NCBI RefSeq assembly: GCF_002854065.1
Contig: NZ_CP024147.1
Strand: one strand, 5' to 3'
Length of the DNA: 64,000 nt
From: Escherichia coli
Lineage (GTDB): Bacteria > Pseudomonadota > Gammaproteobacteria > Enterobacterales > Enterobacteriaceae
Shown in pieces: positions 6,738 through 51,819 of the stretch. The notes below the pieces were generated by a model, which was not told where the DNA came from, made no database searches, and saw only the letters and a program-made list of their open reading frames with translations. Made by a program: the position numbers and the translations under genes. How positions within the stretch are numbered: position 1 is the first letter of the stretch; every line of letters begins with the position of its first letter.

Positions 6738-6780
6738 CACATTCTGACTGGTGGTTTCCCACCAGTCAGGCTGAATAAGA

Positions 6781-7535: not shown

Positions 7536-10165
<2,630 letters not shown>

Positions 10166-10335
10166 CCTGACGACTCCCCACCTGCTTTTTTATGATTCTG
10201 GCATAACCTGGCGATAGCGTACCGCAAAACAGCGATAATTTTATAATGGTGGCATGATAAGACGCGACTATCATTCATTGCAGGCATTGGCACACCAGGC
10301 CGGATGTGATCCGGCCTGGTCTTAATGATACCCTT

Positions 10336-10518
10336 TCAAACTTCTTCCGCAGAACGACTCCCCTCCCCCGGAACAAGCTCGGTTTCATGAAAAGCTTCCC
10401 GCTTGACCCCGTAACCGTCATACCAACGACACTCAACCATACCGCTGGAGTATCCAGTGACAATCATCCGCGGGCCGCCCTCTTTAACCGTAACTTCCTC
10501 ACTAACCATAAAGCTCAT
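10336..10518 (-). CDS. yodC: Small protein YodC
   Basis: 60 aa ORF (MSFMVSEEVTVKEGGPRMIVTGY…), syntenic position. Confidence 0.7.
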   Translation of the reverse strand: MSFMVSEEVTVKEGGPRMIVTGYSSGMVECRWYDGYGVKREAFHETELVPGEGSRSAEEV

Positions 10519-10596
10519 ACTCGCCTCCTTTTTTCGAGTGAAACTTGTTCACCTTAGTTGAAGATGGCGAATTTTGCATAATAGCCTGTGCGAGTA

Positions 10597-11514
10597 TTAA
10601 TGTGCCTGACCGCGCATTTTCGCTACGGCTTTCACTCCCAGCACCACGATGCCGCCGATGATAAATCCAAGAATCAGATTTAAAACAGTCGGTAATATCA
10701 TCGCCACCACTGCACTTTGCTGCCCGGCGAAATGTTCAATGGCGTGATGCAGCGGCGCAATACCATGTACCACAATCCCGCCGCCGACGAGGAACATCGC
10801 CAGCGTGCCGACAATCGATAACGCTTTCATCAGCCAGGGCGCGATAATCAATAATCCTTTACCTAATGCCTGCATCAGCGCGCTGGATTTTTCCGCCAGC
10901 CAATACCCCAGGTCATCAATCTTAACGATAACCCCTACCAGACCGTAGACGCCCACGGTCACTACCAGCGCGATGCCTGAAAGCACCAGCACCTGATTAA
11001 GCAACGGCGCTTCGGCCACAATCCCCAGCGTGATGGCGACGATTTCGGCAGACAATATAAAATCGGTACGAATCGCCCCTTTTATTTTGTCCTTTTCAAA
11101 CTTCAGCGGATCCTGCGCCGCCAGCTTCTCCAGACGCTGCTGACTCTGCGCCGGATCTTCTTTATGTTTACGCGCCTCCAGCATATGCAGCACTTTCTCT
11201 ACCCCTTCAAAGCAGAGAAACGCGCCACCAATCATCAACAGAGGCGTAATCGCCCACGGGATAAACGCACTGATGATCAGCGCCAGTGGCACCAGAATCA
11301 CTTTATTAATCAGCGATCCTTTCGCCACGCCCCAGACCACGGGAAGTTCCCGGTTGGCCCGCACGCCTGAAACTTGTTGCGCATTGAGCGATAAGTCATC
11401 CCCTAATACACCGGCGGTTTTCTTCGCCGCCAGTTTGCCCATCACGGAGATATCGTCCAGCAGTGTGGCGATATCATCGAGCAACGTCAGTAAACTACTC
11501 CCGGCCAAAAGCAT
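10597..11514 (-). CDS. yedI: Inner membrane protein YedI (DUF808)
   Basis: 305 aa polytopic membrane ORF recognised as YedI. Confidence 0.85.
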
Positions 11515-11686: not shown

Positions 11687-12607
11687 ATGCGTTTCCGCCA
11701 GTTATTACCGCTTTTTGGCGCGCTGTTTGCGTTGTATATCATTTGGGGCTCAACCTATTTTGTCATTCGGATTGGCGTGGAAAGCTGGCCTCCATTAATG
11801 ATGGCGGGCGTTCGATTCCTGGCAGCCGGTATTTTATTGCTGGCATTTTTGCTACTGCGCGGACACAAGCTCCCCCCGCTACGTCCGCTGCTCAATGCCG
11901 CGCTGATTGGCCTGTTATTGCTGGCTGTCGGTAATGGCATGGTGACGGTTGCCGAACATCAAAATGTTCCTTCCGGCATCGCCGCCGTAGTGGTTGCAAC
12001 CGTGCCCCTCTTTACCCTGTGCTTCAGCCGCCTGTTTGGCATTAAAACGCGCAAACTGGAATGGGTGGGTATTGCCATTGGGCTTGCCGGAATCATCATG
12101 CTCAATAGCGGTGGAAATTTAAGCGGCAATCCGTGGGGCGCGATTCTGATTTTAATCGGCTCGATTAGCTGGGCGTTTGGCTCAGTTTATGGCTCGCGCA
12201 TTACCTTACCTGTAGGGATGATGGCGGGTGCGATTGAGATGCTGGCGGCAGGCGTGGTGTTAATGATCGCGTCGATGATTGCGGGTGAAAAACTGACGGC
12301 GCTCCCTTCCCTTTCAGGCTTCCTTGCGGTCGGCTATCTGGCGCTGTTTGGTTCGATTATCGCCATTAACGCTTATATGTATTTAATCCGCAACGTCAGT
12401 CCGGCTCTCGCCACCAGTTACGCCTACGTTAACCCGGTGGTCGCGGTCTTGCTGGGTACGGGACTGGGCGGAGAAACGCTGTCGAAGATTGAATGGCTGG
12501 CGCTCGGCGTAATTGTCTTCGCGGTGGTACTGGTCACGTTGGGAAAATATCTCTTCCCGGCAAAACCCGTAGTTGCGCCAGTTATTCAGGACGCATCAAG
12601 CGAGTAA
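11687..12607 (+). CDS. yedA: EamA/DMT-family transporter YedA
   Basis: 306 aa ORF with about 10 transmembrane segments, recognised as YedA. Confidence 0.85.
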   Translation: MRFRQLLPLFGALFALYIIWGSTYFVIRIGVESWPPLMMAGVRFLAAGILLLAFLLLRGHKLPPLRPLLNAALIGLLLLAVGNGMVTVAEHQNVPSGIAAVVVATVPLFTLCFSRLFGIKTRKLEWVGIAIGLAGIIMLNSGGNLSGNPWGAILILIGSISWAFGSVYGSRITLPVGMMAGAIEMLAAGVVLMIASMIAGEKLTALPSLSGFLAVGYLALFGSIIAINAYMYLIRNVSPALATSYAYVNPVVAVLLGTGLGGETLSKIEWLALGVIVFAVVLVTLGKYLFPAKPVVAPVIQDASSE

Positions 12608-13066
12608 ATGAATCCCCTGCGTGTCGATCTGCGCGCTGGCACCTTCGCCGCAGATCCACTCTTCCAGACGCTCGCTAAGCGCTTCATCCGTCAGCTTCTC
12701 GCGCCCACGTAACGCGCACTCCCAGACAATCAATACGCGCCAGCCGAGTTCCTGCAAGCGACTGATATCGCGGCGATCGCGCTCAACATTTTTACCTATC
12801 TTCTCCAGCCAGAACTCGGTTCGAGTCGCAGGCACTTTAAACAGATAGCAGTGATGATGGTGCCAGAAGCAGCCGTGGGTAAATATCACGCAGCGATATT
12901 CATCAACGACAAAATCCGGGCGTCCGGGCAGACTGGCGTCCTGAACGCGAAACGCCAGGCCCTGCCCGGTTAACAGACTGGCGAGGCGCTTCTCAATCGC
13001 CGTATCACGCGTGGCAATCGCGCGCATATTTTTGCTGCGAGTGGCCTTATCGTGAACGTCGGCCAT
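12596..13066 (-). CDS. vsr: Very-short-patch repair endonuclease Vsr
   Basis: 156 aa from internal ATG ([18 protein letters not shown]…); its 5' end overlaps the 3' end of dcm by 20 bp in another frame, the arrangement known for dcm-vsr. Confidence 0.9.
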
Positions 13067-14465
13067 GTTGTGCCTCTTGCTGACGCAACGCCACCGCCTG
13101 TTTGATTTTTGGCTCAAGCAGTTTTGCCACCGCGGCAAAGACCGGCACGACCACCGAGTTACCGAACTGGCGATAGGCCTGAGTGTCCGAAACCGGAATG
13201 CGGAATTTCGCTTCTCCCGGCGCTTCAAAACCCATTAAGCGCGCGCATTCCCGAGGCGTTAACCGACGTGGACGATGTTGCTGATTCAGCGGATCGTCAA
13301 AGTCTTTTTCACCCGTGGCCATATCCCATCCGCGATCGATTAAAATTTCCGCGCCATCTTTGTAATAACGCGCAGACAGCGTACGGGTGACGCTTTGCGG
13401 ATTGTTCGGATAAACCATTCCATAACCGAAGCCGTTACCGCGCGCCTGATGTTTTTTCGCATATCGATAGAGGTACTTCCACAGTACCGGCGTCAGGATA
13501 TATTTCGCCTCGACCATCGGGTCCAGCAGCTGCGCCAGCGTCACTCGCTGCGCAGGGAAACATCCGCTGATATCACGCAGAGTAAAATCGGCTTTCAGAT
13601 TAAGATCGCGACGAAAACCCACCAGCACGATGCGTTCACGGTGCTGCGGCAGAAAATGTTTACCATCGATGATTTTCGGATCGTCCGGCCCGTTATCTTC
13701 TGCATCAGCCACGTCATAGCCCAGTTCGTCCAGCGTCTTCATGATGATGCGGAACGTTTTACCCTGGTCGTGGCTTTTCAGGTTTTTGACGTTTTCGAGC
13801 ACAAACATCGCCGGACGACGCGCGTCGATAATGCGCACCACATCAAAGAACAGCGTGCCCTGAGTATCGCAGGCAAAACCGTGCGCCCGCCCGAGCGAGT
13901 TCTTTTTCGATACGCCAGCCAGCGAAAATGGCTGACAAGGGAAACCGGCCAGTAAAACATCGTGTTCAGGAATGTGTTGACGAATATGTTCCGCCGCCGC
14001 CTCATCACTCACGCCTTCTTTATGGCTGAGGGTGATGTCGCGGATATCTTCATTAAAATGATGCGTCGCCGGGTCGCAATAATGGTTGGCTTTATAAGTG
14101 CGTACCGCATGTTTGTTCCATTCGCTGGTAAACACGCATTGTCCGCCAATCGATTCAAAACCGCGACGGATACCGCCAATTCCGGCAAATAGATCGATAA
14201 AGCGAAACGCATAATGCGGATGATGTGCCGGTGGTTTGGGTAACAACGTTTGCAGATGGGCGAACTCTTTCTCACTTAAACGGTGCCATGCCGAGTCATT
14301 CGTCAGCGCACGTTTTAAAATTGCCGCGCTCCAGTGATTCTCACCCACAACATTAAGCTGCGCCACCAGCGTTTTAACATCATAAATTTGCAGCAGTTTC
14401 TCCAGCATTGCCTGTGCGGCATTCCCGGTGCTGTATGAATCGGTTACTGATATATTTTCCTGCAT
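13047..14465 (-). CDS. dcm: DNA-cytosine C5 methyltransferase Dcm (CCWGG)
   Basis: 472 aa ORF with C5-MTase motifs (FAGIGG, PCQPFS, ENV), recognised as Dcm. Confidence 0.9.
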
Positions 14466-17315: not shown

Positions 17316-17352
17316 AGCCTGAGTTCGTCCCTCATCGAACTCAGGCTTTTTT
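17316..17352 (+). terminator. Rho-independent terminator downstream of yedS
   Basis: AGCCTGAGTTCG…CGAACTCAGGCT hairpin followed by TTTTTTATT. Confidence 0.7.
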
Positions 17353-22511: not shown

Positions 22512-23147
22512 ATGCGTCTGACAGCAAAACAGGTGACATGGCTGAAAGTTTGCCTGCATCTTGCCGGATTGTTGCCGTTTCTCTGGCTGGTCTGGGCGAT
22601 CAATCACGGTGGACTGGGTGCCGATCCGGTGAAAGATATTCAGCATTTTACCGGTCGCACTGCACTGAAATTTTTGCTGGCGACCTTGTTAATCACACCT
22701 CTGGCACGCTACGCAAAACAGCCGTTATTGATACGCACTCGCCGCCTGTTAGGCTTATGGTGCTTTGCCTGGGCGACACTGCATTTAACCAGTTACGCAT
22801 TGCTGGAGCTGGGCGTGAATAATCTGGCGTTATTAGGCAAGGAGTTAATTACCCGGCCTTATTTAACGTTAGGAATTATCAGCTGGGTTATTTTGCTTGC
22901 TTTAGCGTTTACTTCAACCCAGGCGATGCAGCGAAAACTCGGCAAGCACTGGCAACAGTTGCATAATTTCGTCTATCTTGTCGCGATCCTGGCCCCAATA
23001 CATTATCTGTGGTCGGTGAAGATTATTTCACCGCAGCCGCTCATCTACGCTGGGCTGGCTGTACTGCTTTTAGCCTTACGGTATAAGAAGTTGCGTTCCC
23101 TTTTTAACCGGTTACGCAAGCAGGTTCACAACAAATTATCTGTATAA
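22512..23147 (+). CDS. msrQ: Haem-binding membrane subunit MsrQ (YedZ)
   Basis: 211 aa polytopic membrane ORF immediately after msrP. Confidence 0.9.
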
Positions 23148-23180: not shown

Positions 23181-23214
23181 GCCGGATGTGGCGCGAGCGC
23201 CCTATCCGGCCTAC
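23181..23214. repeat. REP (repetitive extragenic palindromic) element
   Basis: GCCGGATGTGGCGCGAGCGCCCTATCCGGCCTAC matches the REP consensus; intergenic between msrQ and zinT. Confidence 0.6.
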
Positions 23215-46071: not shown

Positions 46072-46101
46072 AAAAAAGCCTGCTTTCTAGCAGGCTTTTT
46101 G
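46072..46101. terminator. Bidirectional terminator between asnV and ldtA
   Basis: AAAAAAGCCTGCTTTCTAGCAGGCTTTTTG. Confidence 0.6.
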
Positions 46102-51715: not shown

Positions 51716-51819
51716 CTAATTTCGATAGGTTCTCAGATGAGAATGATGACGGTGATACACAGATAAGAATCAATGAGCAATGAGGGTTGCCGGGCAACCC
51801 TCATTGAATAAAACAGGAA

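Follow-up and report, generated by a model that had tools for sequence, protein, structure and literature searches.

A truncated REP in the yodC 3' untranslated region of Escherichia coli as a candidate protective RNA hairpin

The REP between malE and malF was reportedly described by Newbury in 1987 as a stabiliser and attenuator acting between tandem genes, and Liang, Rudd and Deutscher are said to have found in 2015 that ribosomes stall at REPs lying no more than 15 nt from a stop codon, a point that is not used as evidence here. In a later study (bioRxiv 10.64898/2026.03.23.713779) a REP between tandem genes stabilised the upstream mRNA and acted as a partly Rho-dependent attenuator, and genome-wide the tandem pairs containing REPs had higher upstream/downstream expression ratios; counting against a general role of this kind, the same preprint found no uniform gain in mRNA half-life from REPs. 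Dar and Sorek (2018; PMC6061677) reported that Rho-dependent transcripts of E. coli end, at steady state, just past stable stem-loops without a U-tract, which stop trimming by PNPase and RNase II, and that terminators could switch mode in evolution merely through their uridine content. Intrinsic termination, according to the same paper, needs a U-rich tract.

The features of E. coli REPs have been set out by Corneloup (2021; PMC8266576). They include a 5' GTAG tetranucleotide, in which TnpA_REP tolerates no mutation, a conserved AA/GC bulge that is needed for activity, unit lengths of 35 (y), 29 (z1) and 37 nt (z2), and a high copy number, often in BIMEs.

The yodC-dgcQ locus and its palindrome

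The locus described here lies in a stretch of 64,000 nucleotides of E. coli chromosomal DNA, referred to below as the window. Its features, all on the minus strand, are as follows:

10518-10336, minus strand: yodC (60 aa), from ORFs and RefSeq annotations; its 3' UTR carries the hairpin
10321-10335, minus strand: spacer of 15 nt between the yodC stop and the base of the stem
10294-10320, minus strand: perfect palindrome with a 12-bp stem, assigned from sequence, fold and alignment as a truncated proximal z-type REP
10249-10289, minus strand: distal y-type REP, decayed and inverted relative to the proximal unit, assigned from alignments A1 and A3
10166-10248, minus strand: dgcQ-proximal intergenic segment, nearly invariant across Escherichia (columns ~140-241 of alignment A3)
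8471-10165, minus strand: dgcQ (yedQ), specifying a diguanylate cyclase of 564 aa; the downstream tandem gene

The first-pass annotation had placed the palindrome between the convergent ends of the two genes. Since yodC and dgcQ are both on the minus strand, in the ORFs as in the RefSeq annotations, they stand in tandem, and the palindrome is intercistronic, or promoter-proximal to dgcQ. Read along the minus strand, the hairpin is 15 nt past the yodC stop and 128 nt ahead of the GTG start of dgcQ; across E. coli alleles this distance is 13-15 nt, the commonest alleles, with a 14-bp stem, having 13. Of 80 orthologous loci in other Enterobacteriaceae, most keep the tandem arrangement.

The palindrome, CCAGGCCGGAT-GTG-ATCCGGCCTGG at 10295-10319, has the sequence originally ascribed to it. 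Its stem is perfect as claimed, and the length of 11 bp was a slight under-call, one further A-T pair giving 12 bp with arms at 10294-10305 and 10309-10320 around the loop GTG (plus strand). The yodC-sense (minus) strand reads ACCAGGCCGGAU-CAC-AUCCGGCCUGGU. Two parts can be distinguished, a lower stem (GCCGGAT/ATCCGGC) and an outer stem (ACCAG/CTGGT). As RNA the 27 nt fold with -22.5 kcal/mol (z = -6.3). The palindrome is not due to chance: perfect hairpins with a stem of at least 12 bp and a loop of 3-8 nt occupy four loci of the 64-kb window, whereas 200 shuffles that preserve dinucleotides give an expectation of 0.03 (~130-fold rarer in shuffled sequence). There is no T-tract at the palindrome on either strand, a terminator scan of window positions 9900-10800 gave no calls, and an Rfam scan of the region gave no family (best E = 0.58, 16.7 bits versus a gathering threshold of 97).

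Other perfect hairpins of the window with stems of at least 11 bp are at 17316-17347, 46073-46100, 51778-51806 and 6744-6769; the one at 46073-46100 (AAAAAGCCTGCT-TTCT-AGCAGGCTTTTT) resembles a classic bidirectional intrinsic terminator. The stem at yodC holds two Dcm sites, CCAGG and CCTGG (10295-10299 and 10315-10319), and dcm itself (13047-14465, minus strand) and vsr (ending at 12596, minus strand) lie ~2-4 kb from the palindrome. A metagenomic allele (L120) carries CCTAG, as deamination of 5-methylcytosine on the opposite strand would produce.

REP ancestry and the two alleles

Using megablast the locus was found in 5,364 of 5,426 complete E. coli genomes, in some of them as a two-piece match. 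The short allele, that of the window and of K-12, is carried by 4,146 of the 5,364 (~77%) and a long allele by 1,216 (~23%). At the site of the palindrome the long alleles possess a full-length z-type REP together with an inverted y-type REP, which is a BIME. In strain KW21 a full-length REP-type hairpin, CACCCGACCGGATGTGGCGCTCACGTCGCATCCGGTCGGGTG on the sense strand, stands exactly at the palindrome site and is followed by a canonical inverted y-type REP, TGCCTGATGCGACGCTATCGCGTCTTATCATGCCTAC. Two gaps separate the short allele from the simplest long one (L6-21) in the full intergenic alignment (A3): one of 13 nt, which takes out the upper stem, the mismatch bubble and the loop of the proximal REP, and one of 12 nt, which falls in one arm of the distal REP. 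The remainder of the distal unit reads GTGG-GCATGATAAGACGCGAC...GCAGGCA on the plus strand, having GTGG instead of GTAG and an arm shortened by 12 nt; its counterpart in the alignment is the canonical TGCCTGATGCGACGC..GCGTCTTATCATGCCTAC of the long alleles and of other Escherichia.

Full-length units are present in E. albertii, E. whittamii and 3-4 other Escherichia species-level representative genomes, the latter labelled Escherichia sp. or E. coli (six other Escherichia genomes in all). Since such units are found throughout the other sampled Escherichia, the long form is ancestral at the level of the genus and the palindrome is derived. By positional homology (alignments A1, A2 and A3) the palindrome is a truncated REP, a stump left in the yodC 3' UTR at a site where related genomes carry a full-length z-type unit and its inverted y-type partner; the earlier suggestion that it was REP-like is borne out in this sense. 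The lower stem is the same as that of the canonical REP at window positions 23181-23214.

That unit, which serves as an in-window reference, is a z-type REP (TGCCGGATGTGGCGCGAGCGCCCTATCCGGCCTAC, with GTAG on the minus strand) located just past an msrQ-like ORF (22512-23147) and ahead of the next ORF. In some long alleles at yodC a 42-nt unit, made up of the linker and part of the y-type REP, is repeated once or twice more in tandem, a copy-number polymorphism typical of BIMEs, so that the yodC-dgcQ spacer measures 195 nt in L6-21, 237 nt in KW21 (L001) and 279 nt in UTAK-12 (L094). The missing REP annotation in NC_000913.3 was considered as counter-evidence and rejected, as the copy of this record that was used has no REP features anywhere: no REP or repeat_region is given even at the malE-malF or msrQ-zinT REP, and such an absence is uninformative.

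Compared with a z-type REP in a BIME (group 2 REPtron; Ton-Hoang 2012, PMC3333891; PMC8266576), the palindrome has the identical lower stem, is likewise extragenic and just 3' of a gene, and has an inverted y-type partner. The GTAG tetranucleotide is absent, CCAG being found on both strands of the palindrome, where it pairs with CTGG and lengthens the stem; none of the proximal units of Escherichia has an exact GTAG, the forms seen being GCAG, ATAG, CAAG, CCAA, CCAG and CCCG. There is no internal mismatch or bulge in the perfect 12-bp stem, the region of the AA/GC bubble being contained, with the upper stem and loop, in the 13-nt gap. At 25-27 nt in the window, and 31 nt in the allele found most often, the palindrome spans 25-31 rather than 29-37 nt. 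It is also single-copy, its form occurring once in the window and once per E. coli genome, and the search for the same palindrome elsewhere in the genome that the first-pass annotation had proposed gave no second copy; a second BLAST 'place' per genome was rejected as such, being the palindrome's own match on the reverse strand. With CCAG in place of GTAG, a perfect stem, a length of 25-31 nt and a single copy, the palindrome is, as read from these features, derived from a REP but has ceased to be one in functional terms, and RAYT is not expected to act on it. Tetranucleotide, bulge and copy number all led to the rejection of an active mobile REP.

The GCCGGAT...ATCCGGC lower stem is present here, but a REP cannot be recognised from this stem alone. 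When metagenomes were scanned for AGGCCGGAT-N3-9-ATCCGGCCT, more than 120 matches were obtained. Among the matches listed (contigs L096-L215), eight had the same loop and flanks, and all eight were the yodC locus; the remaining ones (contig GC 0.31-0.73) were from unrelated bacteria, many of them placing the stem between A- and T-tracts. Judged by this setting, the AGGCCGGAT...ATCCGGCCT stem is a generic intrinsic-terminator hairpin in many unrelated bacteria and not a REP signature. Since the stem is so common among unrelated bacteria, the core sequence is not diagnostic, and the REP ancestry of the palindrome rests on positional homology.

The ancestral terminator and the pairing of the stem

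In the wider Enterobacteriaceae a canonical intrinsic terminator stands within a few nt of the end of yodC and has the form AACGCCCGG-loop-CCGGGCGUUUUU. A GC-rich hairpin with a T-run was present at 63 of the 74 orthologous loci from outside Escherichia, beginning 6 nt (median) past the yodC stop and typically in the form AAACGCCCGG-loop-CCGGGCGTTTTT. Nine of the 11 exceptions belong to the Citrobacter freundii complex, in which dgcQ is no longer the neighbour. At these nine loci (L026, L027, L031-L033, L036, L045, L047 and L055) the conserved terminator has also gone, and a different, conserved AT-rich sequence lies downstream of yodC, which indicates a rearrangement of that lineage.

The yodC terminator of Citrobacter, Salmonella, Enterobacter, Kosakonia and other genera resembles the E. 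coli element in position, in lying between tandem yodC and dgcQ, and in the stability of its stem. Its stem, however, has an unrelated sequence (ACGCCCGG/CCGGGCGT), and the A- and U-tracts found there have no counterpart in the E. coli element. As in an intrinsic terminator, a GC-rich stem-loop stands directly after the gene, but the U-rich tract of 7-8 nt is missing from its 3' side, the sense tail GUGUGCCA having 2 U in 8. The terminator scanner made calls in the Citrobacter and Enterobacter mori orthologues but none at this site of the window and none in the long allele of E. coli, which agrees with the original remark that the palindrome has no T-tract and is not a strong intrinsic terminator.

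The flanks of the REP record intermediate states. On its 3' side two basal Escherichia loci (L008 and L010) have TGTTTTG, so that the REP is followed by GUUUU and obtains a terminator-like score. The same flank is TATTGTG, TGTTGTG or AGTTGTG among E. albertii, strain E69 and E. whittamii, CTGGTGTG in Escherichia sp. MOD1-EC7003 and the short E. coli alleles, and CGGGTGTG in the long ones. On the 5' side CAAAAGCAGG has become ACACCAGG. The U-tract has thus been lost by degrees within Escherichia while the flanks turned into an extension of the stem.

Pairing in the stem was studied with 13 distinct alleles (alignment A2), a small sample of related sequences, in which 91% of the cells of the proposed helix are paired as against 32-37% when the register is slid by 1-3 columns. 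At five pairs both partners have changed, and none of 500 shuffles reaches the covariation score observed. One pair forms a series from C-G through U·G, the K-12 type, to U-A. The exact alleles with C-G account for 1,243 and 1,069 genomes (two common alleles with a 14-bp stem; 2,312 together) and for another 873 with the window allele, that with U·G for 373, and that with U-A for 41. The stem pairing thus appears, in this alignment, to have been kept by compensatory changes, though symmetric changes could also arise without selection, by template switching at a quasi-palindrome. Rare alleles have a weaker stem: in that of the window, G in place of C at 10322 leaves 12 bp of the usual 14, and two others (L093 and L120) have one stem mismatch each.

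The two strands are not equivalent. The long allele folds with -40.0 kcal/mol in the sense and -32.0 kcal/mol in the antisense orientation, and the K-12 allele with -24.2 and -20.1 kcal/mol. Wobble pairs exist only in the yodC-sense RNA, and asymmetric alleles always fold better as yodC-sense.

Function and competing explanations

We consider it probable, though well short of assured, that the REP stump in the yodC 3' UTR works as a protective hairpin without a U-tract in the RNA of the yodC-sense strand. The proposal is made because the hairpin has the anatomy and the position of the stem-loops of Dar and Sorek and of the REPs between tandem genes. Like the former (PMC6061677) it has a stability comparable with that of intrinsic terminators, lacks a U-tract and lies just past a coding region; the C>G enrichment downstream of yodC is weak. 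Like the malE-malF REP and REP325 (yjdM-yjdN) it is a GC-rich hairpin without a U-tract between co-oriented genes; those are experimentally shown, canonical and often of several units, whereas the yodC element is a single truncated unit recognised from sequence alone. The effect expected by analogy would be the same: the upstream mRNA would be protected, and the downstream gene would be shielded by a leaky block that depends in part on Rho.

In the proposed sequence of events RNA polymerase would not be released efficiently at the hairpin, since there is no U-tract, and transcripts running past it would end further downstream, by Rho or otherwise. PNPase or RNase II would then trim them in the 3'-to-5' direction until halted by the hairpin, which would leave the yodC mRNA with a protected 3' end. 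The same hairpin may leakily attenuate read-through into dgcQ, as do REPs between tandem genes. A role as RNA stabiliser, by analogy with these systems, is our best guess as to function.

The first-pass annotation gave a lack of transcript 3' ends at the hairpin as its refuting condition, and published 3'-end data were consulted on this point. In the curated Term-seq tables of Adams et al. (2021), which are complete, yodC does not appear and no entry falls within K-12 positions 2028100-2028199, so that the condition nominally holds in this one dataset; in the TERMITe supplements, too, there is no yodC 3' end. The former negative result is a weak one, since the tables are thresholded and YodC is among the sigma-S-controlled small proteins of Salmonella; yodC may have been under-expressed in the samples used by Adams et al. 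(2021) and TERMITe, and the negative result stands. Downstream of the hairpin the C/G ratio is 1.1-1.4, a weak bias, and no clear rut site was found there by C/G composition. A Rho-dependent region has been reported inside dgcQ (K-12 2027287), which is compatible with a protective hairpin and not probative.

The alternative that survives best is that the palindrome is a neutral relic, the decaying fragment of an immobile REP with no present function, whose perfection and symmetric changes arose at the DNA level, through template switching or hairpin-templated repair, and not through selection on RNA. We regard this as rather unlikely, while giving it serious weight. The lack of GTAG and of the bulge cuts the palindrome off from REP dynamics, both REP units of the yodC-dgcQ locus have suffered deletions, E. 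coli maintains side by side two alleles as unlike as the short (77%) and the long (23%), and no Term-seq 3' end was called by Adams et al. (2021). The 3' flank differs from that of E. whittamii by three clustered changes, all of which improve complementarity and which look templated. BIMEs are, according to a reference cited in PMC3333891, a known major source of intergenic polymorphism. Against a relic, a strong hairpin fills the slot at the 63 of 74 non-Escherichia loci mentioned above and at seven of seven sampled Escherichia loci, and both deletions have spared the lower and outer stem. Only yodC-sense RNA can accommodate the U·G intermediate and the G·U pairs found in the long allele, and symmetrisation at the DNA level does not predict such a difference between strands.

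A non-canonical intrinsic terminator, in which the stable hairpin alone would release RNA polymerase and so replace the ancestral terminator, is improbable. The position is that of the ancestral terminator, the hairpin (-22.5 to -26.8 kcal/mol) is at least as stable as the Citrobacter terminator stem (-19.7 kcal/mol), and the REP of the two basal Escherichia still has its GUUUU and a terminator-like score. Weighing more heavily are the two U in the eight nt of the sense tail, the absence of scanner calls, the U-rich tract required according to PMC6061677, and the absence of a 3' end in the Term-seq data of Adams et al. (2021) and in TERMITe. Very improbable is an element acting at the level of DNA (an operator for a regulator of dgcQ, a BIME target of gyrase, IHF or Pol I, or an active REP substrate of RAYT), as suggested by the location 128 nt upstream of the dgcQ start, the perfect dyad with its CCAGG and CCTGG sites and the several proteins which REPs and BIMEs are reported to bind (PMC2817692): the long allele of 1,216 genomes inserts 13 nt at the dyad centre and would wreck the spacing of half-sites, on which ground an operator for a dimeric regulator was rejected, the site is occupied in other genera by an unrelated terminator sequence, TnpA_REP requires both an unmutated GTAG and the bulge (PMC8266576) where the palindrome has CCAG and a perfect stem, and the palindrome is single-copy.

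The 3' end of yodC may further record a complete stepwise switch from an intrinsic terminator, through a REP set between old A- and U-tracts and then a REP without U-tract, to a pruned hairpin that compensatory changes have kept paired, and the 77%/23% dimorphism might be a natural regulatory polymorphism. This fuller history is put forward tentatively and is itself unlikely. Were it true, the short/long dimorphism would tune how stable yodC mRNA is and how much transcription runs on into dgcQ, a gene for a c-di-GMP cyclase, and would thereby affect cellulose and biofilm behaviour. The palindrome itself is one more REP-derived hairpin and of modest importance. The interest of the locus lies in its being a worked example of an intrinsic terminator replaced by a selfish repeat, which was then apparently kept for its hairpin alone, in the common two-allele polymorphism adjoining the gene of a diguanylate cyclase that regulates biofilm, and in the natural test it offers of whether REP hairpins are stabilisers, terminators or nothing.

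On the dgcQ side, the segment 10166-10248 presumably holds a putative dgcQ promoter and 5' UTR; no sigma-70 consensus was found on the minus strand in a scan of this segment. In strain WY517-2 (L003) a 6-nt insertion (CTGCTT in the sense orientation) is located near window position ~10205, within the putative promoter/5' UTR. In strain KMi029 (L005) an IS1A abuts the yedI side and the yodC-dgcQ region has gone, 83 nt of the query being left. A promoter-like sequence, TTGTCA-16 nt-TATGGT (9/12 matches), is located at 10436-10463 on the minus strand, within the coding sequence of yodC; this candidate promoter could feed dgcQ through the hairpin, or its sequence may merely mirror codon conservation. 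The same site is also present in Enterobacter mori (positions 1256-1283 of L041), in which the yodC-dgcQ spacer is just 54 nt long and consists mostly of terminator.
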